This document shows positions 641 through 28,344 of a DNA stretch of 32,000 nt, in pieces (position 1 is the stretch's first letter; the number at the start of each line of letters is the position of its first letter). Under the pieces are notes generated by a model. It was not told the DNA's origin. It did no database searches and saw only the letters and a list, made by a program, of their open reading frames with translations. Where the stretch lies: assembly GCF_000148385.1 (NCBI RefSeq), contig NC_014537.1, positions 1,800,001-1,832,000 of the forward strand, read 5' to 3'. Position numbers and translations under genes: made by a program. This stretch comes from Vulcanisaeta distributa DSM 14429 (GTDB taxonomy: Archaea > Thermoproteota > Thermoprotei > Thermoproteales > Thermocladiaceae).

Positions 641-1300
641 TCACCGCTGCTTAATGGCATCCTTAATGCTTACCACCGAGGATACCCGCCCACACATATT
701 CTTCTCGCCAGCTATTATGAATATTGGGTTTCTCGAGAGCATTACGGTGCCAACGCCAGTCCTCAGGCCCTTGGCTATAACGACTTCTGTGACCTCCACG
801 TTCACGAAGCCTAACTCGGCCATGGTCGCCAGGGCCAGCGATGCGTTCTCCAGGGTTATTGCATCAATTACTAGGCGGCCGCCCACGCTTAATTTACCAC
901 GCACGCCCACGATTATGTCCCTCAACTTACCACCACTACCACCTACGAACGCGGCATCCACCTCACCAGGCACTTGATTTAATGCCTCAGGTGCCTCACC
1001 ATGTATGACAATGACCCTATCACTCACACCAAACCTAATGGCGTTCCTCCGCGTGAGTTCCACGGCATTTTCATCACTATCAATGGCGTAAACGAGGCCT
1101 CTCCTCGCCATTAAGGCAGCCTCCACAGTCACTGAACCTGTTCCCGAACCTATGTCCAGCACCCTCGAGTCCTCCCTCAGCCTAAGCTTCGAAATCACTA
1201 ACGCCCTAACCTCCTCCTTAGTCATTGGGATTCCCTCGACACGTTCAAATAATTCGTCAGGTATTCCAGGGGTTACGTACCGCCAGAGGGGATTACTCAT
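641..1300 (-). CDS. cbiT: cobalt-precorrin-6B C15-methyltransferase (decarboxylating)
   Basis: The track ORF is 641..1330. Motifs: PGIPDELFER..PMTKEEVRAL, the SAM motif VLDIGSGTGSVTVEAA, and VGGSGG. I prefer ATG 1300 (MSNPLW), which overlaps the cbiD stop by 8 nt. ATG 1330 is the alternative. Confidence 0.85.
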   Translation of the reverse strand: MSNPLWRYVTPGIPDELFERVEGIPMTKEEVRALVISKLRLREDSRVLDIGSGTGSVTVEAALMARRGLVYAIDSDENAVELTRRNAIRFGVSDRVIVIHGEAPEALNQVPGEVDAAFVGGSGGKLRDIIVGVRGKLSVGGRLVIDAITLENASLALATMAELGFVNVEVTEVVIAKGLRTGVGTVMLSRNPIFIIAGEKNMCGRVSSVVSIKDAIKQR

Positions 1301-2345
1301 GGTCGCCAACCCTCGCGAGTACCTCACCATTATCGCTAAATATCACAATCTCGAGGGAAGCATTGCCCAGCTTCCTTAACCTGGTAAGTGCCCTCTCGGC
1401 TATTATCCCCATAACCTTACCCGCGGCATTGCCTAGGTAATGCAAGGCCTCGCCGACCGTTTTAGAGGAGGCTATCCTACGTAGGGTCTCACCATTAATC
1501 CCAGCCATTACTGCGGCCCAGGTGATTGTCTCGATTCTCGCATCACCAACTGAGCTGTGCGTGTTTAGTAAACCGGCCGCGAGCTTAACGGCCTTCCCTG
1601 GCAACAACGCCACGACTACCTTACGGAAGCCCAGCCCAATGGCCTCCCTAACCGAGGCGCCTACTAAATCGCCGACCTTGACCACAGATAGGTCGTAAAT
1701 GGCCTTGGCGAAGTTAACAGCCCTATTGCCTGAGGCGATCACCACACCATCACCATCCCTCCTCAAAGCCATTAATTGAGCCTTTATGTGTTGGATGAAG
1801 GATTCATCACTTACGGGCCACTCGATACCCATCGTCCCGAGTATGGATATGCCACCGATTATACCGACATCCTCATTCATCGTGAACCTAGCCAACTCCT
1901 CACCGTTGGGCACCTCAATGATTACCTCAACACCCGAGCTTACGACTTCCCTAACCGCATTCTCAATCATGAGCTTAGCCGTGGGGCTAATGGCCGACTC
2001 GCCCATAGGAATGCTTAAGCCTGGCCTCACGACCTTACCCACGCCACGCCCACCTACAATCCTTATTGTCCCTTCGCCTATTGGATGCACGCAGGCCCTG
2101 ATCACGGCGTTATCCAGCTTGTCGGGGTTATCACCGGCGATTTTACGCACATCAGCACATACATAGCCGCCCTCCGTGAAGACCCTATCGACGGCCACCT
2201 CAAGCCTGAGGCCGACGGGTGTTGGTATGGTAACACTATTGGGTGTTACGCCCTTAATTAATGCCATAACCGCCGCCTTCGCGGCCGCCGCGGCGGCAGC
2301 CCCCGTGGTTATACCAAAGCGTTTAAAGTAATCAATCACACTCAT
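1293..2345 (-). CDS. cbiD: cobalt-precorrin-5B C1-methyltransferase
   Basis: 350 aa. The N-terminus FGITTGAAAAAAAKAAV and the overall length are typical of CbiD. There is a 4-nt overlap with cbiH. Confidence 0.88.
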   Translation of the reverse strand: MSVIDYFKRFGITTGAAAAAAAKAAVMALIKGVTPNSVTIPTPVGLRLEVAVDRVFTEGGYVCADVRKIAGDNPDKLDNAVIRACVHPIGEGTIRIVGGRGVGKVVRPGLSIPMGESAISPTAKLMIENAVREVVSSGVEVIIEVPNGEELARFTMNEDVGIIGGISILGTMGIEWPVSDESFIQHIKAQLMALRRDGDGVVIASGNRAVNFAKAIYDLSVVKVGDLVGASVREAIGLGFRKVVVALLPGKAVKLAAGLLNTHSSVGDARIETITWAAVMAGINGETLRRIASSKTVGEALHYLGNAAGKVMGIIAERALTRLRKLGNASLEIVIFSDNGEVLARVGDHE

Positions 2346-3073
2346 ACCCTGTAGCCCCTTGGCGTTATCATGAACCCTCTGTAAACATAGGTTCTTGAGT
2401 TACCTATTATTAATGTCGTATTCATATCCACGGCCTCCAAATACCTCATCCAGCTACCTAGGTTTGTCGTTAGCACGAACTCACTATCCCTATAGGCATT
2501 CCTGACTATGCCTACTGGCGTTGATGCGCCTCTGAACATGGATATTAGGTTCATGGCCTTAACAAGCACGTCTTTACTGATCGGGTTATACAGGGCAATC
2601 ACGAAGTCGCCGCTCACGGCTGCCCTAATCCTCATCATAATCTCCTCATCACTAACCAATAGATTGCTTAGGTTTATGACTGCGAAGTCCATGTTGAGGG
2701 GCGCGCCTAATCTGGCGGCTGCCGCAAGGGCCGCTGTAACTCCTGGTATTATGGTAGGTCTCAGGTCGAGCCCCTCCTTACTTACTAACTCAAGGACGAG
2801 ACTCGCCAACCCATAGACCTGGGGATCACCACCACTCACCAGCGATACCACATGGCCGTTGAGGGCCTTCTCGATAGCTAGCCTAGCCCTCATGACCTCC
2901 TCATGCATTCTTGATTTAATAACCTCCTTGCCATTGATTAAATCACTGATTAGATTTACGTACGTATTATAGCCAATAACCACGTCACTCTCTCTGATGG
3001 CGTTAATTGCAGCCACAGTTCTTAGCTCAGGGCTTCCTGGCCCAATGCCGACTACGTAAAGCCTACCAACCAT
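2342..3073 (-). CDS. cbiH: cobalt-factor III / cobalt-precorrin-3 C17-methyltransferase
   Basis: 243 aa. Motifs: LYVVGIGPGSPELRT..., VVIGYNTY, VSGGDPQVYGLAS and IPGVTAALAAAARLGAPL. Confidence 0.88.
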   Translation of the reverse strand: MVGRLYVVGIGPGSPELRTVAAINAIRESDVVIGYNTYVNLISDLINGKEVIKSRMHEEVMRARLAIEKALNGHVVSLVSGGDPQVYGLASLVLELVSKEGLDLRPTIIPGVTAALAAAARLGAPLNMDFAVINLSNLLVSDEEIMMRIRAAVSGDFVIALYNPISKDVLVKAMNLISMFRGASTPVGIVRNAYRDSEFVLTTNLGSWMRYLEAVDMNTTLIIGNSRTYVYRGFMITPRGYRV

Positions 3074-4100
3074 GTCTCCTCCCTACCATGCTAATTAATT
3101 CATTGAATATGGCCACAGCCACATTACTACCCCCATACGTGCCCCTCACGACTATGCTTGGTATCCCGATTTTGATCAATTCCTCCTTAGCATCTGCTGC
3201 GTTGGTAAATCCTGGCGGTGTTGCAATTACCATGGGGACCTCGACGCCCTTCCTGATTAACCTAAGTACCTCAACGAGGGCTGTGGGTGAATTGCCAATA
3301 ATAGGTATTGCGGGTTTGTACCTACTTAGTGCTATCCTCATTGACGCCGCAGCCCTCGTGATGCCGAGCTCATTAGCTAACTTAGTGGTCTCTGCATCAT
3401 CTATTAAAGTCACCGTGTTGCCCCATCTAAGGCCTACCATCACCATTTTGGTATCGGCAACCACCGTGACGCCGTTATTTATTAATTCCTTAAACACGTC
3501 AGGCGTCCTTGGGTCGACATAGACGTACTTAACAAGGGCTGGATTGCCCGTGGCGAACACAGCCTTTGCCACTAGCCTAATGAGTACCTGATCATCAGTA
3601 TTAAGTTCCCTACGTACTAACTCAATCACTCTATTGATGCTGTTCCTTTCAATTTCTTCGGGACTCATGACGTACCTGGTCAAGTACGTGGGTATGTCCA
3701 GGGCATTGATTATTCTTAAAAGCAACGCCTCTCTAACGAGTATGGAGTCAATCAGTGGCTTGGTAACGTAGGCCTCAAATTCGTAACCACCCCATGATGC
3801 CCTAACCCACTTATTAAATTCCTGAATGTTTAAGGACCCCATTATGTCCCTAACCACGTGATTACCCGGGCCTAGGAATGCCAATGCGATGATTATGCGC
3901 TTAATACCACGGCTTAGGTGCTCCCTCAACACATCCCTCCAATTGGGGCTTGAGTATTCATTATGGGCAATACTTACATAAGTCATTAAACCCAAGCCAC
4001 TAAGTCGATTCTCAAGATAATTCTTTAGGTCATTAAACCAATCCAGGAATTCAGGTCTGCGGGATCCATGGGTTACTACGAGTATCGATGTAGGATCCAT
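3063..4100 (-). CDS. cbiC: fusion protein: N-terminal small CbiX-type sirohydrochlorin cobaltochelatase plus C-terminal cobalt-precorrin-8 methylmutase (CbiC)
   Basis: The N-terminal ~130 aa (ILVVTHGSRRPEF...IIIALAFLGPGNHVVRDI) follow the CbiX(S) pattern HGSR...G.H. The C-terminal ~200 aa (FATGNPALV...VVADTKMV...IGNSPTALVEV...VIATPPGFTNA...VRGTYGGSNVAVAI) are CbiC/CobH-like. The frame is single and uninterrupted. Confidence 0.8.
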   Translation of the reverse strand: MDPTSILVVTHGSRRPEFLDWFNDLKNYLENRLSGLGLMTYVSIAHNEYSSPNWRDVLREHLSRGIKRIIIALAFLGPGNHVVRDIMGSLNIQEFNKWVRASWGGYEFEAYVTKPLIDSILVREALLLRIINALDIPTYLTRYVMSPEEIERNSINRVIELVRRELNTDDQVLIRLVAKAVFATGNPALVKYVYVDPRTPDVFKELINNGVTVVADTKMVMVGLRWGNTVTLIDDAETTKLANELGITRAAASMRIALSRYKPAIPIIGNSPTALVEVLRLIRKGVEVPMVIATPPGFTNAADAKEELIKIGIPSIVVRGTYGGSNVAVAIFNELISMVGRRHGW

Positions 4101-4143
4101 ATCCTACTTAAAACCTGGATAAAAATCCTATTTAAAAGAGTTA

Positions 4144-4815
4144 CTAATCACGACTGCAGGGTGGTATCACCATGATCGTTAAATCACTAAACTCATTGCC
4201 TAGACTTATCATGCCTGAGGCCCTGGTCCTCGTAATCCTTTGATTATTGTATGTGGCTTTCTCGATTATTGTGACCTCGGGGTCGCAGCCCAGGTCTAGT
4301 AGTGCCTTAGCGATGAGCAGTGGGCCGTGTGGGTATGGGGGCGGTAATACAATTATGTACCTCCTCAGCACCCTTAGTATAGTTTTAAGCTCCTCAAGCC
4401 TATCGTCTAGAGAACCCCTCACATGTAGTGATATTAACACTGAGGAGTCCAGGTCGATACCAAGCATTCCTAATACCGCATTTACCGAGGAGACCCCAGG
4501 CACAACCTCGTAGGTAACTCCGTACTCCCTGCATAGCCACGTGACCTTCGCCATTAACTGCGACTCCGACACCGAGGGGTCCCCATGCATGAGCAGTGCC
4601 GCGTCTTCATTAACCGCGCTCGTTATCAATTCCTTAAGGCCCTCAGCCTCATCCCTATAGCTGAGCTTTATGACCCTCTTATTGATTAAGTACTCGCTGA
4701 ATCTATCAAGCACGCTGCCCCAGCCGGCCACCACGTTAACTGAGCGTAGTATGTTAAGGCCCTTAACCGTTATCAACTCCGGGTCACCAGGTCCCACGCC
4801 GATTATGTACAGCAT
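4144..4815 (-). CDS. cbiE: cobalt-precorrin-7 C5-methyltransferase (CbiE type)
   Basis: 223 aa. Motifs: MLYIIGVGPGDPELITVKG, HGDPSV, VPGVSSVNAV and ISLHVRG (the CbiE-like SxHG segment). It is too short for CbiF and diverges from it. Confidence 0.7.
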   Translation of the reverse strand: MLYIIGVGPGDPELITVKGLNILRSVNVVAGWGSVLDRFSEYLINKRVIKLSYRDEAEGLKELITSAVNEDAALLMHGDPSVSESQLMAKVTWLCREYGVTYEVVPGVSSVNAVLGMLGIDLDSSVLISLHVRGSLDDRLEELKTILRVLRRYIIVLPPPYPHGPLLIAKALLDLGCDPEVTIIEKATYNNQRITRTRASGMISLGNEFSDLTIMVIPPCSRD

Positions 4816-4847
4816 TCAAGCGTTGTTATATGCCCAGCTTTTAAGCG

Positions 4848-5846
4848 TTAGACCCTCGCTACGGCCACCGTGACCCTCCCAATAACTATCTTCCTAAGAA
4901 GCAGTGAGGTACCTCCAGCAGCTAATGCAGCGAGTTCGGCAACACCCCTAACGCCTAACCTCCTTAATTCGTCACTCGGCGGTGTGGCGCACCCATGATT
5001 TACCCTCTCCAATTCATCGGTACTTACTAACCTAAAGGGTAGGCCCAATGCCTTAGCCGCCTCGCCGACCCTCGGCTTTATTGAGGCTACGGCCAAGACC
5101 CTGTCGGCCCCAATACCGAGCCTATTCAATGTAGTTCTTATGGCCTTAATTACCTCATTAATACCGGCCTCATTCATAAGCCCAACCCCAATGATTACCT
5201 TATACGGCACACACCGCAGCATCCTAATGCCCTCTAACGATTGATGGGGTTCACCCACAGTGATGATGTACTCACACCCTGCATTAACCCCAATCACGTA
5301 GCTGCCCCTTACCTCCCTTGGCAATTCATTAATGCCAATGATGCATATGGGCTTATTACTAAGGAGCGCCGAGTAGAAGTTCGGCAATTCTTCGGTATTA
5401 ACAATGTCACAATGAAGAAGCCTAGCCAACTCCTCAATGCTTGTGACGCCCATGTACTCGGCGGCTGTGGTTATCACGGCCTCAGCCCCCATTAGCCTGG
5501 CAATCGCCTCAGCAACCTCATTGGCGCCCCAATGGGCGCTCAATATGGGTATTACGTACCTACCCCCATCATCAATCACAACCACTGCTGGATCCGCAAC
5601 CTTAGACTTAGCATACTTACAGACCAGCCTGACGGCACCACTCAACGCCATCACCAGGACTATGGCGTCAAAGCAGTCCCAGTACCTACCCAAATCACCG
5701 TCGTACTTGATCATCGCCGTCGGCACGCCAGTCCCCCTCAACAACCTAAATAGCCTATTGGCAGTATCAGCACCGGAATCGCTTGCATAAACAATGAGCA
5801 CACCCCTCCATAATCTCTCCAGGATAGACACGATATAGGATAGCAA
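4848..5846 (-). CDS. cbiG: cobalt-precorrin-5A hydrolase
   Basis: 332 aa. The C-terminal CbiG signature is ASIKPRVGE..ALGLPFRLVSTDEL...GVRGVAELAALAAGG. The track start is TTG 5846. GTG 5831 or GTG 5801 fit better with the TATA palindrome at 5852-5867. Confidence 0.82.
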   Translation of the reverse strand: MLSYIVSILERLWRGVLIVYASDSGADTANRLFRLLRGTGVPTAMIKYDGDLGRYWDCFDAIVLVMALSGAVRLVCKYAKSKVADPAVVVIDDGGRYVIPILSAHWGANEVAEAIARLMGAEAVITTAAEYMGVTSIEELARLLHCDIVNTEELPNFYSALLSNKPICIIGINELPREVRGSYVIGVNAGCEYIITVGEPHQSLEGIRMLRCVPYKVIIGVGLMNEAGINEVIKAIRTTLNRLGIGADRVLAVASIKPRVGEAAKALGLPFRLVSTDELERVNHGCATPPSDELRRLGVRGVAELAALAAGGTSLLLRKIVIGRVTVAVARV

Positions 5847-5851
5847 TCCTA

Positions 5852-5867
5852 TTTATAAGCTTATAAA
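5852..5867. promoter_or_regulatory. perfect 16-nt palindrome TTTATAAGCTTATAAA, presenting back-to-back TATA boxes
   Basis: The sequence equals its own reverse complement. It lies 6-20 nt upstream of the annotated cbiG start, consistent with a leaderless cbi mRNA starting near GTG 5831. It could also fire rightwards toward the GC-rich element. Confidence 0.55.
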
Positions 5868-5961
5868 TACACGCCGGAATTAATAGATAACGCCTAACTA
5901 CTCACTTACTATCATAACGCCTAAAGAACACGTAGTAAAGTACCGGATCAAGCAATGCTAT

Positions 5962-6112
5962 GCTACCGTTTGCCCGGGAGTGGTTTTGACCACCCTCGGG
6001 TTCATCACGGCTTTCCATCCCCTGCCCCCGCCTGCGGGAGCGTGGCTCCCATCGGCGAAGAGCGGTTCATGCCACGGTCCCCCTCACCTAGTTCATCGGG
6101 TTCATCCCTGCT
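5962..6112. ncRNA. candidate structured ncRNA of unknown class (GC-rich island in an AT-rich spacer)
   Basis: There is a sharp local rise in G+C, judged by eye. Hairpin 5973-5983/5990-6000 is 11 pairs including 1 GU and 1 mismatch. GGGAGC-GTG-GCTCCC lies at 6036-6050. An alternative pairing is CGTGGC 6041-6046 with GCCACG 6071-6076. The 11-mer TCGGGTTCATC occurs twice exactly 100 nt apart (5996-6006 and 6096-6106). A T5 run at 6123-6127 follows on the + strand. The TATA-like box at 6137-6144 is also correctly placed for minus-strand transcription, so the strand is unresolved. Confidence 0.45.
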
Positions 6113-6136
6113 ATAATATCACTTTTTACAGAAAAG

Positions 6137-6144
6137 TTTATAAG
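6137..6144 (+). promoter_or_regulatory. TATA box (TTTATAAG) for the mini-ORF/TnpB-like operon
   Basis: Context is AAAAGTTTATAAGTTTTT, with its start 43 nt upstream of ATG 6180. The same octamer occurs in the cbiG palindrome. Confidence 0.5.
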
Positions 6145-6179
6145 TTTTTCTGTAGTAATTTTTCGTGGTGTAGAGAATT

Positions 6180-6326
6180 ATGCCTGAAGAATACGTGTTT
6201 CACGCTAGGATTTCGAAAACGAGCCACGGACTGCTGTGCATATACATTCCGAAGGGGCTCAGCTCGAAGATGCAACATCTACATAGGAGAGAGGTGATAA
6301 TACGTGTCACAGTACCAGATGAGTGA
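6180..6326 (+). CDS. 48-aa SpoVT/AbrB-like (swapped-hairpin) DNA-binding mini-protein, putative
   Basis: Below the ORF-track size cut-off. My translation is MPEEYVFHARISKTSHGLLCIYIPKGLSSKMQHLHRREVIIRVTVPDE. The pattern (strand, G, hydrophobic strand, IPKG, then alternating basic/hydrophobic strands) resembles AbrB/VapB-type domains. Its 3' end overlaps the next ORF by 23 nt. Confidence 0.5.
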   Translation: MPEEYVFHARISKTSHGLLCIYIPKGLSSKMQHLHRREVIIRVTVPDE

Positions 6327-7377
6327 TGATGTGGTTGATGCAACACTACTTATAAAGTATGTTACCGTTATCGGTAGACTAGTCCCCATTTCGTCGGAGG
6401 ACTACATGAAGTTAGTTAGGCTGGCATATGATTTCAAGAAAGCGGTACTTTACGCCACAAGAATGATAGCCAAAGGCATAGATGCTAACTCTATCCTCAG
6501 GGAACTCAGGTCAATGCTTAACAAGGCTTATGGTGACTCAGCGTACAAGGTTGCAAAGGCAATTGTAGAAGGATGTGAATATAGCAATGGCAATCCAAGG
6601 CATATTAAGATAAAGAGGCTTTTCATTGTAAGCGATGGTGAAGCATCTAGGCTTGGAAACCGAAACATTAGGTTAGAGTCCGTAGGTGTAGTCAAGATTA
6701 AGTATCCCTACGATGGCTCGTGGCTCACCTTCAAAGCTTTATTCGGCAGAGAGTACTTACCGCTAGTTGCAGAACTGGTGGAGCTTGCTAGGCAGAAGAG
6801 GGTTAGCTATGGGGCTAGAATTGTTTTCAGAAGCGGGAGGATATACCTCCACATCTCAATACCACTAGAACTCTATCTAAAGCATTTTAAGAGGGGAGAG
6901 GCTGGGGGAAGCCTCGTTGCGGGATTCGACTTGAACAGCGATAGGATAAACATGGTGATAGTCGATAAGTACGGGAGGATAAGGGACACCAAGACCGCGT
7001 GGTTCCCGGAGGTGACATCACATGGATTCCCAAGAAACAAAGCCAAGACGAGGAGGCTTGAAGCACTCTCGAAATTGCTTAGGTATGCCTACTATCATGG
7101 TGTTGGTGTTGTTGTCTTTGAGAATTTGTTTGCCGTTAAAAAGAGAGTTTTTGGCAGGAATAGAATTGCAAATCGCAAGATAGCAAGATTTGCAAAAGGA
7201 GAATTGTTACGGCATGGCTTGGTTATGGCTATGAAGTACGGTTTCAGAGTGTATCTGGCAAATCCAAAGGGTACATCAAATTCTAGAGAACATGATGAGG
7301 TGATGAGGAGGTATGGGTTAGACAGACACACGGCATCAGCATACCTCATAGCCCTGAAAGGACTAAAACAACAATGA
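6304..7377 (+). CDS. TnpB-like (IS605 OrfB/Cas12-related) RuvC-fold protein lacking the zinc ribbon
   Basis: 357 aa. RuvC-I is VAGFD209LN, RuvC-II is VVVFE273NL, followed by ANPKGTSNS, and RuvC-III is GLD340RHTASAYLIALKG. Only 15 residues separate TSNS from D340, and there is a single Cys (C91) in the whole protein, so no CxxC..CxxC. A strong SD, GAGGTGAT at 6291-6298, lies 5 nt before GTG 6304. Confidence 0.75.
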   Translation: MSQYQMSDDVVDATLLIKYVTVIGRLVPISSEDYMKLVRLAYDFKKAVLYATRMIAKGIDANSILRELRSMLNKAYGDSAYKVAKAIVEGCEYSNGNPRHIKIKRLFIVSDGEASRLGNRNIRLESVGVVKIKYPYDGSWLTFKALFGREYLPLVAELVELARQKRVSYGARIVFRSGRIYLHISIPLELYLKHFKRGEAGGSLVAGFDLNSDRINMVIVDKYGRIRDTKTAWFPEVTSHGFPRNKAKTRRLEALSKLLRYAYYHGVGVVVFENLFAVKKRVFGRNRIANRKIARFAKGELLRHGLVMAMKYGFRVYLANPKGTSNSREHDEVMRRYGLDRHTASAYLIALKGLKQQ

Positions 7378-7734
7378 ACAACCTCAGTTGATAATAAATG
7401 AATGTAAAAAGATTTCTATTAACATGAAAAAGGATTCAGCCCTAGGATCATTGATAATGAAAACTCTGCATAATCCATTAACAAGCCTGCTATCGTGCTA
7501 CCCAGGCCATACGGAACCCTACGGACAAGCCCTGAGACTTAAATTTCTTGATTCTTGAAATTATTAAATTTCGTTTTTGAAAACTCATGGGCCTTGGGTG
7601 CGGTCTTGACAGTTAAACCTAGTCATTGCCCCTATTATCTTCTTTATTCTCTTAATGTTGTTTTCGTTTAATGTCTCCTCATACATACTTTTCAATACCT
7701 CGCAAACTAACGGCAAATTCGAAGTCTATATAAA

Positions 7735-9087
7735 TCAAGACGAGATAAATAAACACCCAGAGTTAATTACCAAGCGCCCTCTTAACCTAGCGTTAAAGCC
7801 AGCTTTTCTAAGTCTATCCTGGATCGCTACCGCATCCTCTAGCCTACTGCGCTTAATCCTTAACTCAACACGACCAGCATCTTTCACGTGCGTGTTCATC
7901 CATACGCCGCTAATGACCTCAACCATCGACCCACCCAACGGCTTAATCCTCGTTTTAGTTAGCTCGATTAAGTTCCTAAGCTTCTCCGCATCAGGCAGTC
8001 GGCTTAGATCTTCAATCAAAGTCCTAACCCTAGGTTCACTAAGCCAACTCTGAGCTAGAGTGACAGCTCTTGACGAATAGACTTTAATTTCTTTCTTATA
8101 CTTATTATCGTAATCCTTAAAGTTTAAATCCATCATTCTTTTGATGATGACTTTCCACAACTCATACTTTGATTTACCTAATATGAGCATAATTATCTTT
8201 TCCTTGGTGTTGATGCTACCATCACCTAATATTGCGAAGAGCAGAAACATTGTGAATCCATCGTTATTTAACGCGAGTACCTCCTTGGCAATCTTTACTT
8301 TACTCCCGAGCTTATGCCCGATAGCCATTAATTGCCACGTAATCTTCACATCGCTATTTTCATTAATGTTTAAGCTATGTATGCGCATATAATTTTTGCC
8401 AGGCCAAGCCATTAGCCAAGCAATGACCTGCCAGAGGTAGTTTGTGCCCATCACGGGATAGCCTCTTTCATGGATTGAACCATCCGTGAGCATTAAACCA
8501 TACTGCATTGGTCTAAGCAAATCATCAAAGAATCTCGGTATATCTATGTGAATACCTTTAAGGTTATTCAAGGTTAATCTAATTATTATACTACCTGACT
8601 TAGCGGTCCTTTTTACACTAATTGCTAGGTGTTCCGTGTATAGGTGTGCTATGAATGACTTAGCAGCGTTGATCGGATCTCCGCTTATTGCAATCTTCAC
8701 CTCACCGCTTCTTAACTTTTTAATTAATTCCTTAAGCTCTTTTCGATAAATCTTTAGCCAACCCTCCCTTGTTCGATTAACCAATTTAAGCATCTTCATG
8801 CCTATTTTATATACCGCCTTCCTCAACCTAGTAATATCATCATCACCTCTATTAGCCCTTGCCTTGATTTCCAGTAACCAATCACTCAGAGCATTAATCG
8901 CATAATCAAAGGGTGTGTTCTCGTCGTTTAATAACACGTCTCTGTACCTCTCGACTCGCGCTAAAAACTCATTAATTAATTTATTTACCTCCTCAATTAT
9001 TTTAGGGCCTTTGACCTCCTCACCGCATTTAAGTCTCTCCGAGCCCCTTGTCTTTTTACCCCAGCATATTCTTAAGCTGAGAGTCAT
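7735..9087 (-). CDS. free-standing double-motif LAGLIDADG homing-endonuclease-like protein with extra N- and C-terminal domains
   Basis: 450 aa. Motif 1 is MQYGLMLTD202GSI and motif 2 is FLLFAILGD289GSI, 87 residues apart, with both acidic residues present. The N-terminal ~190 aa are helical and charged. The C-terminal ~150 aa are a separate domain (…VELRIKRSRLEDAVAIQDRLRKAGFNARLRG). The coding region is AT-rich. Confidence 0.65.
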   Translation of the reverse strand: MTLSLRICWGKKTRGSERLKCGEEVKGPKIIEEVNKLINEFLARVERYRDVLLNDENTPFDYAINALSDWLLEIKARANRGDDDITRLRKAVYKIGMKMLKLVNRTREGWLKIYRKELKELIKKLRSGEVKIAISGDPINAAKSFIAHLYTEHLAISVKRTAKSGSIIIRLTLNNLKGIHIDIPRFFDDLLRPMQYGLMLTDGSIHERGYPVMGTNYLWQVIAWLMAWPGKNYMRIHSLNINENSDVKITWQLMAIGHKLGSKVKIAKEVLALNNDGFTMFLLFAILGDGSINTKEKIIMLILGKSKYELWKVIIKRMMDLNFKDYDNKYKKEIKVYSSRAVTLAQSWLSEPRVRTLIEDLSRLPDAEKLRNLIELTKTRIKPLGGSMVEVISGVWMNTHVKDAGRVELRIKRSRLEDAVAIQDRLRKAGFNARLRGRLVINSGCLFISS

Positions 9088-28242: not shown

Positions 28243-28344
28243 GCCGGGGTGGCCGAGCACGGTTAAGGCGCGGGACTCGAGAGCAAGGCCAAGGCATCCC
28301 GTCCCCGCAAGGGGGCCCGGGTTCAAATCCCGGCCCCGGCACCA
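28243..28344 (+). tRNA. tRNA-Ser (anticodon CGA), class II, with a 14-nt canonical-position intron and encoded CCA
   Basis: Hand fold: acceptor GCCGGGG/CCCCGGC; D arm GCC-GAGCACGGUUAA-GGC; anticodon stem CGGGA(28271-75)/UCCCG(28297-301); anticodon CGA at 28278-80; intron 28282-28295 after position 37; long variable arm UCCCCGCAAGGGGGC; T arm CCGGG-UUCAAAU-CCCGG; discriminator A plus CCA. Confidence 0.9.

Follow-up and report, generated by a model that had tools for sequence, protein, structure and literature searches.

A putative transposase-less mobile element with a TnpB-like gene and a conserved left-end RNA structure in Vulcanisaeta distributa

Organisation of the locus

The DNA considered here is a stretch of 32,000 nt from the archaeon Vulcanisaeta distributa DSM 14429 (contig NC_014537.1, positions 1,800,001 to 1,832,000), which is called the window throughout and supplies all coordinates below unless another locus is named. 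At 5966-7442, it holds a compact unit of about 1,477 nt, in which a tiny open reading frame (the mini-ORF) overlaps the start of a large ORF for a TnpB-like protein, and a structured RNA, conserved among related loci, occupies the left end. The features of this unit, from left to right, are the following:

5965..5966: left boundary of the element; a purine is followed by CCGTT (5966-5970), and near-identical copies diverge exactly there
5966..6117, minus strand (inferred): conserved structured RNA, candidate guide or omega-like scaffold, with its 5′ end near 6113-6117 and its 3′ end abutting the left end of the element
6127..6154: palindrome TACAGAAAAG-TTTATAAG-TTTTTCTGTA, read as a symmetric arrangement of a TATA box between two transcription factor B recognition elements (BRE/TATA/BRE), conserved in all AbrB-type loci
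6166..6171, plus strand: Shine-Dalgarno-like GTGGTG, 8-13 nt ahead of the start codon of the mini-ORF
6180..6326, plus strand: mini-ORF of 48 aa with an ATG start
6291-6298, plus strand: Shine-Dalgarno motif GAGGTGAT of the large ORF, 5 nt before its GTG and within the end of the mini-ORF
6304..7377, plus strand: 357-aa ORF for a TnpB-like RuvC protein without a zinc finger, with a GTG start, the precomputed Pfam assignment PF27229 (SSO2105_N) and a place in clade RIIIr-4
7378..7442, plus strand: AT-rich tail of 65 nt forming the right end, which ends in ...CATGAAAAAGGATTCAGCCC; the similarity of near-identical copies breaks off directly behind CAGCC(C)

The end of the mini-ORF and the start of the large ORF overlap by 23 nt. 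An earlier reading of the letters of this stretch (hereafter, the original prediction) had described the two overlapping ORFs, GAGGTGAT ahead of the second and TTTATAAG at 6137-6144 ahead of the first, and all of these were found in the sequence at the positions given. The motif GAGGTGAT is kept among loci, at a position that is also coding sequence, and a GGTG-type motif is found at an equal distance from the start of the mini-ORF in other loci. That no transposase is visible in the window was likewise borne out for the 20 ORFs of at least 140 aa, which were scanned against Pfam and gave no transposase domain; ORFs under 140 aa, which would include a Y1 TnpA with its typical length of about 135 aa, were not scanned. 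There is also no transposase domain among the cbi genes annotated at syntenic loci.

A TnpB-like protein without a zinc finger

The AlphaFold2 model of the large protein (pLDDT 87.9) aligns over its full length, in a Foldseek search of the PDB, with Cas12f, Cas12k, ISFba1 TnpB and ISDra2 TnpB (E 1e-9 to 1e-4, probability 1.0, query-normalised template-modelling score (TMq) 0.45-0.57), and 8iaz and 8bf8 are among the matches. On the strength of this model, the protein is assigned to the TnpB/Cas12 fold class without the zinc finger, as the original prediction had proposed from the letters. The RuvC triad that it had named, D209, E273 and D340, is confirmed by conservation across 72 homologues, with D209 and E273 kept in all of them and D340 and H342 in at least 90%. 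Its remark that one cysteine and too few residues remain for a zinc ribbon also proved correct. The single cysteine is C91, and NPKGTSNS and D340 are 12 residues apart, with one short helix (328-337 in the AlphaFold2 model) instead of the zinc-finger/TNB insertion. The RuvC-III motif reads G-L-D340-R-H342-T-A-S-A-Y, with both the D and the H conserved. In one plausible alignment to DxNAAxNI, made at sequence level only and without a residue-level structural alignment, H342 takes the position of the Asp, and thus either D340 or H342 may be the residue at the canonical RuvC-III site.

Profile models of TnpB barely recognise this protein. A local Pfam-A scan gave no match for the large protein or the mini-protein, the former having none at E up to 1, and the thresholds of the Pfam OrfB_IS605 and TNB models were not reached by the large protein. 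The NCBIfam TnpB models were also sub-threshold: NF040570 (guided_TnpB) scored 24.3 bits against a cut-off of 100, TIGR01766 23.8 against 32, and TIGR01765 likewise stayed below its own. A PDB sequence search found no homologue of either protein. In the databases there are 674 relatives of the large protein, all with the precomputed assignment PF27229, 'SSO2105_N'; neither 'SSO2105' nor 'PF27229' occurs in any paper of the searchable literature. The closest relative is 97% identical and belongs to Vulcanisaeta souniana, at a locus syntenic with the window (cbi genes at left). Others, at 55-80% identity, come from metagenome-assembled genomes labelled Desulfurococcales, Staphylothermus, Thermofilaceae, Geoarchaeota, Bathyarchaeota and Nezhaarchaeota, and from hot-spring and vent metagenomes. 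A viral origin was considered and rejected, there being no relatives of the large protein in IMG/VR contigs. A profile search of 1.84 billion cluster representatives (at 50% identity) returned only 527 clusters at E up to 1e-3. By this search, the family is small and well apart from the canonical TnpB mass.

The mini-protein

In every locus of subfamily A, to which the window copy belongs, that holds upstream sequence, the mini-ORF is present at 75-100% identity, with ATG, GTG or TTG as its start. Substitutions are concentrated at third codon positions, and the ratio of nonsynonymous to synonymous changes (pN/pS) among 55 unique sequences is 0.12 in the frame of the mini-ORF versus about 2 in both other frames. 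Because of this pattern, the mini-ORF is a real gene under strong purifying selection. The selection test had been suggested in the original prediction, and its outcome, together with the conservation in subfamily A, upholds the claim made there that the small protein is a genuine, co-conserved partner. The V. souniana annotation includes the 48-aa ORF among its genes, and the 26 database homologues of the mini-protein are all annotated as 'hypothetical protein'.

The identity of the fold is less clear. The AlphaFold2 model of the mini-protein (pLDDT 83) has a beta-loop-alpha-beta topology, and the best PDB fold for it is a dimeric double-zeta beta-barrel (DZBB), 8jvp, at E = 0.7; the query was a monomer model, which cannot show a swapped dimer. 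The Pfam model MazE_antitoxin (PF04014) matches 2 of 19 relatives at E of about 0.04-0.06 (13.8 bits against a cut-off of 24.7) and does not match the window protein, and hhalign comparisons with AbrB and MazE gave a probability below 1%, which is not significant. An AbrB/MazE-like nature is thus weakly supported. The original prediction had called the protein AbrB-like: a conserved mini-gene is indeed there, but the AbrB label reaches only sub-threshold values with PF04014, the PDB fold and hhalign.

What occupies this slot differs between subfamilies. In subfamily A′ (for instance, L084; loci are given by L numbers), there is a divergent AbrB-like mini-protein. In subfamily B, at 55-57% identity, it is an RHH protein of about 48 aa, ILHVRIDDELEKRFRKKVLDVYG..KGALAKAVEEAIKLWLEKYE, with sub-threshold RHH_3 matches. 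The mini-protein may be an autorepressor, an antitoxin-like partner or both, and the regulator or antitoxin role that the original prediction had suggested is plausible.

A different TnpB-like protein, of 418 aa, is encoded at L061:5231-6487 (minus strand). It matches Pfam Cas12f1-like_TNB (E 5.5e-6, 26.9 bits against a gathering threshold of 26.3), with OrfB_IS605 sub-threshold. Next to it, at L061:6522-6704 (plus strand), there is an AbrB-like 60-aa ORF (..VYVFEGTVIKTGPKYLIYPPKEYQEKLRRLHGEKVKVIVV..), which is divergent from the 418-aa TnpB-like gene and not in tandem upstream of it. Consequently, this type of mini-protein also goes with other TnpB lineages.

A structured RNA at the left end

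The 150-215 nt that separate the left end from the promoter are GC-rich and conserved in all three subfamilies. This stretch lies just upstream of the part of the locus that the original prediction had dealt with, and it was missed there. An nhmmer search found the RNA-like element in 79 of 99 sequences, always beside the gene and in one orientation. An alignment of all RNA sequences with MAFFT only gave a poor consensus of 12 pairs, and subgroup alignment and a covariance model were needed; the subgroup alignment had 37 pairs, 14 of them with compensatory changes. Realignment with the covariance model (R1) gave 71 matches in the fetched loci and the window, 69 of them distinct, and the match in the window, at 5966..6117, scored 71.6 bits (E 8e-19).

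In the alignment of the 69 distinct sequences, 94.6% of the cells are paired, versus 76% in shuffled alignments and 40-54% when the partners are slid. Compensatory changes on both sides are seen in 29 of the 37 pairs, amounting to 322 cells versus 40-66 in the slid controls, and the covariation score is 0.331 versus about 0.05 in controls. At least five helices covary over the 150-215 nt. Covariation hence shows that there is an RNA structure at the left end, and it is the only conserved non-coding structure of the element. It does not belong to a known RNA family as far as Rfam scans can tell, as these gave no match either at the gathering thresholds or by E-value.

A canonical omegaRNA at the 3′ end was also considered and rejected. 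For the last 150 nt of the large ORF together with the tail, RNAalifold gave -0.8 kcal/mol and 4 pairs, which amounts to no conserved structure. The entropy of third codon positions is uniform along the large ORF, without synonymous-site constraint, and beyond the stop codon conservation extends for only about 65 nt.

Two further observations concern this RNA. First, the model has additional matches without adjacent mini or TnpB genes, at L061:4785-5018 (plus strand), L081:2279-2458 (minus strand), L051:2978-3158 and L056:1768-1939 (plus strand). Those in L061 and L081 are truncated or degraded left ends, the one in L061 running into an unrelated ORF. These gene-less matches may be remnants or RNA-only derivatives. 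Second, the hexamer GTTCAT on the plus strand (ATGAAC in the sense of the RNA), or close variants of it, is repeated 4-6 times within the RNA region of each copy (5994-6106 in the window). In the predicted RNA, the repeats read (R)AUGAAC and are located in loops and internal loops. Many copies also have ATGAA, in the opposite orientation, in their right-end tail (7398-7430 in the window). The repeats could be putative protein-binding sites or GA-rich RNA motifs.

Strand of the RNA and the shared promoter

Several measures favour the minus strand for this RNA. RNAalifold gave -55 and -29 kcal/mol on the minus strand versus -34 and -21 on the plus strand, the minimum free energy (MFE) of single sequences is lower on the minus strand in 7 of 7 representatives, and the MFE z-score in the window is -1.97 on the minus versus -0.79 on the plus strand. 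At covarying pairs, read on the minus strand, G-U outnumbers A-C by 88 to 48, a modest excess (1.8 to 1) that comes from related sequences and from an alignment fitted to the minus-strand model, and that should be weighed accordingly. The position of the promoter points the same way. The palindrome at 6127-6154, in which a purine-rich, BRE-like arm flanks the TATA on each side, is the sole conserved promoter of the element and lies between the RNA and the genes. On the minus strand, the conserved RNA sequence begins about 27 nt from the centre of the TATA, a spacing judged by the usual distance from TATA to transcription start in archaea, and it fills the space up to the end of the element exactly. 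The RNA is thus most likely transcribed from the minus strand, antisense to the genes, and the palindrome would be a bidirectional promoter and a candidate operator of the mini-protein. A scan for bacterial promoters and terminators was uninformative, the host being archaeal.

Relatives of the RHH type have, instead of the palindrome, two TATA boxes in inverted orientation, separated by about 10 nt, CTTATATA-N10-TATATAAG, an arrangement that is hard to read otherwise than as divergent promoters. The type of palindrome thus switches with the type of mini-protein (AbrB-like or RHH). This joint switch, together with the fact that a protein of either fold can occupy the slot, makes it probable that the palindrome at the promoter is bound by the mini-protein.

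It is very unlikely that the RNA is instead made from the plus strand, whether as an IscB-like omegaRNA placed 5′ of the genes with a guide at its 5′ end, or as a leader that regulates translation, its UCACCU masking the GAGGUGA ribosome-binding sites. The position upstream of the ORFs is that of the omegaRNAs of IscB and IsrB, whose structured RNA is likewise encoded ahead of the nuclease gene, at the left end, and several helices are predicted on the plus strand too. Nevertheless, a plus-strand RNA needs a promoter outside the element: the element ends upstream of the RNA, no conserved promoter is found there, and the conserved TATA is downstream of the RNA. The plus-strand folds are weaker, and A-C mismatches would exceed G-U pairs. 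The guides of TnpB and Cas12 enzymes are, moreover, at the 3′ side. The IscB and IsrB systems also differ in belonging to another nuclease family (IscB has a RuvC with an HNH insertion and a PLMP domain) and in having an RNA that is co-directional with the gene and carries a 5′ guide.

Boundaries and mobility

The ends of the element were defined by comparing 99 loci, all against all. Several pairs of loci are nearly identical over only about 1.5 kb (99.1% for L007 and L048, 97.1% for L040 and L043, 96% for L034 and L038, with L025 and L027 as a further example), and more than 2.5 kb of sequence on each side of such copies is unrelated. The shared segment starts about 397 nt (group 2) or 365 nt (group 1) upstream of the large ORF and extends to about 40-63 nt past its stop codon. 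At the left end, the base at position -1 is a purine in all of 36 distinct junctions (A in 25, G in 11), and positions farther out are random. This base differs even between copies that are 99% identical (G in L007, A in L048), and hence it looks like a target preference and not like a part of the element. At the right end, copies finish in ...ATGAAnACCGAAACAGCC(C) or a variant of it. Inspection of the junctions revealed no consistent terminal inverted repeats or target duplications.

Two cases illustrate movement more directly. At L069:181-1681, a 1,501-nt element of another subfamily, with an AbrB-type mini-protein (MSEVYVFKATLSKLGRGKSLGIYIPK...), is inserted, inverted, in the large ORF of a copy whose uninterrupted version is found in L052, and comparison with L052:3122-3124 reveals a clean empty site, GGCTTGCC/TGGAGC (the slash marks the junction). 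In V. souniana, there is a second, diverged copy at 1.84 Mb that has in common with the window only 5979-7445, at 80% identity, and has other neighbours. Since copies that are 97-99% identical lie in unrelated flanks, one is nested within another copy, and two diverged V. souniana copies occupy different loci, the unit is a mobile element, although not a canonical IS1341, and the sharp ends and the nested insertion show that the clade is, or recently was, mobile. The suggestion in the original prediction that this may not be a plain insertion sequence (IS) is therefore half right. It had named near-identical copies with defined ends as the observation that would speak for an ordinary element, and such copies largely are what was found; nevertheless, the unit is not a canonical IS1341.

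The results also bear on whether this is an ordinary non-autonomous element of the IS200/IS605 or IS607 type (the IS1341 group), with TnpA supplied in trans, the left-end structure serving as a single-stranded DNA recognition element and the mini-protein as a regulator of transposition. The defined ends without terminal inverted repeats, the lack of a clear target duplication in subfamily A, the TnpB-like ORF in multiple copies without a transposase gene, and the JGI name of some relatives of the large protein, 'IS605 OrfB family transposase', all agree with this proposal. It is, nevertheless, quite unlikely. The ends of IS200/IS605 elements are single short hairpins, unlike the five or more covarying helices found over 150-215 nt here, and the structure exactly fills the space from the conserved promoter to the end of the element. 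In addition, G-U pairs are preferred on one strand, and none of 100 fetched loci has a version that bears TnpA.

Relation to described systems

The original prediction knew of no described system with this pairing, and this was not borne out. A system named 'RHH/MazE-TnpB', from archaea, was reported by Altae-Tran et al. 2023 (PNAS, PMC10691335) in the TnpB major clade RIIIr-4, located downstream of a small AbrB/MazE or RHH gene; its TnpBs have no C4 zinc finger and a histidine in RuvC-III, and the authors propose a toxin-antitoxin (TA) system, the same idea as in the original prediction. The two also agree in being archaeal, in having the small gene immediately upstream and in the conservation of the catalytic residues; the published histidine, in place of the catalytic Asp of RuvC-III, may correspond here to H342, near which D340 is conserved as well. 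The family thus fits RHH/MazE-TnpB, as far as its sequences tell, on every protein-level feature, and for this reason the pairing is already known and not new. By contrast, the left-end RNA, the bidirectional promoter and the evidence for mobility are not in the published description. RHH/MazE-TnpB as published has a long 3′ untranslated region, whereas here there is a 65-nt unstructured tail and the RNA is at the opposite end, probably antisense. It is also published as non-mobile, whereas here there are sharp ends and near-identical copies at different places. No experimental follow-up on the RHH/MazE-TnpB clade was found in the searchable literature.

The published proposal would make the locus a chromosomal TA module, with the nuclease as the toxin, the mini-protein as antitoxin and autoregulator, the upstream structure as incidental or regulatory, and ordinary horizontal transfer as the cause of its distribution. 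Type II TA operons whose antitoxins are of the AbrB/MazE or RHH kind resemble the locus, in which the nuclease gene is overlapped by a tiny gene of DNA-binding type and a palindrome covers the promoter. AbrB-like and RHH proteins also swap in one slot, and such an interchange of folds is typical of type II antitoxins. As a full account of the locus, the module is nonetheless unlikely. The conserved unit exceeds the two genes, as it includes a covarying RNA of 150-215 nt and fixed ends, and copies insert cleanly, even into another copy. The locus also differs from type II operons in that the 'toxin' would be a TnpB-like RuvC protein and in having a structured RNA and transposon-like ends, the likeness being known from gene order, overlap and palindrome. 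A TA function and mobility do not exclude each other, and the module is thus partly a complement to the mobile element rather than a rival of it.

Canonical IS200/IS605 TnpB-omegaRNA systems (ISDra2, ISFba1) and the tnpB-only IS1341 elements resemble the present element in several ways. They have the TnpB/Cas12f-like fold, the transposase-less ones have defined ends without inverted repeats, and an RNA scaffold abuts one end with the guide expected outside. The differences are that here the zinc-finger/TNB insertion is lacking, the Pfam and NCBIfam TnpB models are not satisfied, and there is an additional mini-gene. Furthermore, the RNA is upstream and on the other strand, on its own side of the bidirectional promoter, and does not overlap the 3′ end of tnpB.

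Proposed mechanism

Taken together, the reading that we hold to be somewhat more probable than its negation is that 5966-7442 is a compact mobile element of about 1.48 kb from the RHH/MazE-TnpB lineage (RIIIr-4), with no transposase gene, a bidirectional promoter and a guide-like RNA that runs leftward. In this model, whose steps we infer, as we do the mode of excision and insertion, the palindromic BRE/TATA region (6127-6154) would fire both ways. Rightward, one mRNA would yield the 48-aa DNA-binding mini-protein and, by translational coupling, the TnpB-like RuvC nuclease without a zinc finger. Leftward, a structured RNA of about 150 nt would end exactly at the boundary of the element and read into flanking DNA. 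Such an RNA would have the layout of a TnpB/Cas12 guide, in which a 5′ scaffold is followed by a 3′ guide sequence taken from beyond the element, but its gene would be relocated and inverted relative to canonical elements. The left-end RNA could, in this way, be the missing guide RNA of the clade. The RNA-loaded nuclease would then recognise the insertion site of its own element and promote homing or retention, like canonical TnpB. A dimer of the mini-protein would bind the promoter palindrome and throttle both transcripts, and it may also restrain the nuclease directly, as an antitoxin-like brake.

A number of observations weigh against this model, in addition to the limits of the G-U excess given above. 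The strand, the ends and the processing of the RNA are predictions from sequence. In none of the tests does the mini-protein reach the threshold for an AbrB assignment. A transposase gene is never present within the element, the 1.48-kb unit comprising two ORFs only, and beyond the purine at -1 no target-adjacent motif (TAM) or other target motif can be defined from the junctions. The 3 nt found at both L069 junctions (CCT/AGG) may be a 3-bp duplication, a crossover core or microhomology, in what is a lone empty-site comparison. The window copy is syntenic in both Vulcanisaeta genomes, and therefore it is old. Finally, RIIIr-4 is treated as non-mobile in PMC10691335, where the long 3′ untranslated region might encode the guide.

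A broader proposal may be put forward tentatively, as something possible that has the balance against it: that RIIIr-4 TnpBs are the core of a self-regulating, RNA-guided transposon and not immobilised toxins, with the guide at the opposite end and on the other strand, a bidirectional promoter gated by a 48-aa repressor, and spread without the element encoding a transposase. For the guide RNA of these archaeal TnpBs without a zinc finger, the precisely delimited, covarying left-end RNA is a concrete, testable candidate, for which a small hyperthermophilic nuclease (about 357 aa) is well suited. The sharp ends and the nested insertion bear on the published reading of the clade as a case of TA function or exaptation. 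Should this RNA prove to be the guide, it would show that a TnpB system can have its RNA gene shifted to another place in the element, turned round and brought under the control of a dedicated repressor. Otherwise, the 71 matches reported above would still represent an archaeal RNA family that is undescribed and has no entry in Rfam 15.

Neighbouring features

Directly to the left of the element, on the minus strand at 641-5846, there is a cobalamin biosynthesis cluster (CbiD, CbiX/CbiC, CbiG and TP_methylase genes). The element lies 119 nt upstream of the start of cbiG, beside a run of TTTATAAGCTTATAAATA (5851-5868), probably the promoter of cbiG. On the other side, a 450-aa ORF (7735-9087, minus strand) has no Pfam match. 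It was considered as a part of the system and rejected, as it lies beyond the end of the element and other genes flank the second copy in V. souniana. Its V. souniana orthologue is called with 500 aa and is split here into the 450-aa ORF and a 33-aa ORF (7585-7686), a split that points to a frameshift or a stop codon close to the 3′ end of the gene, 140-290 nt from the right end of the element. Farther away, at 28243-28344 on the plus strand, there is a tRNA gene of about 100 nt (Rfam, 47 bits) to which ARAGORN assigns no anticodon; it is probably an intron-containing archaeal tRNA.

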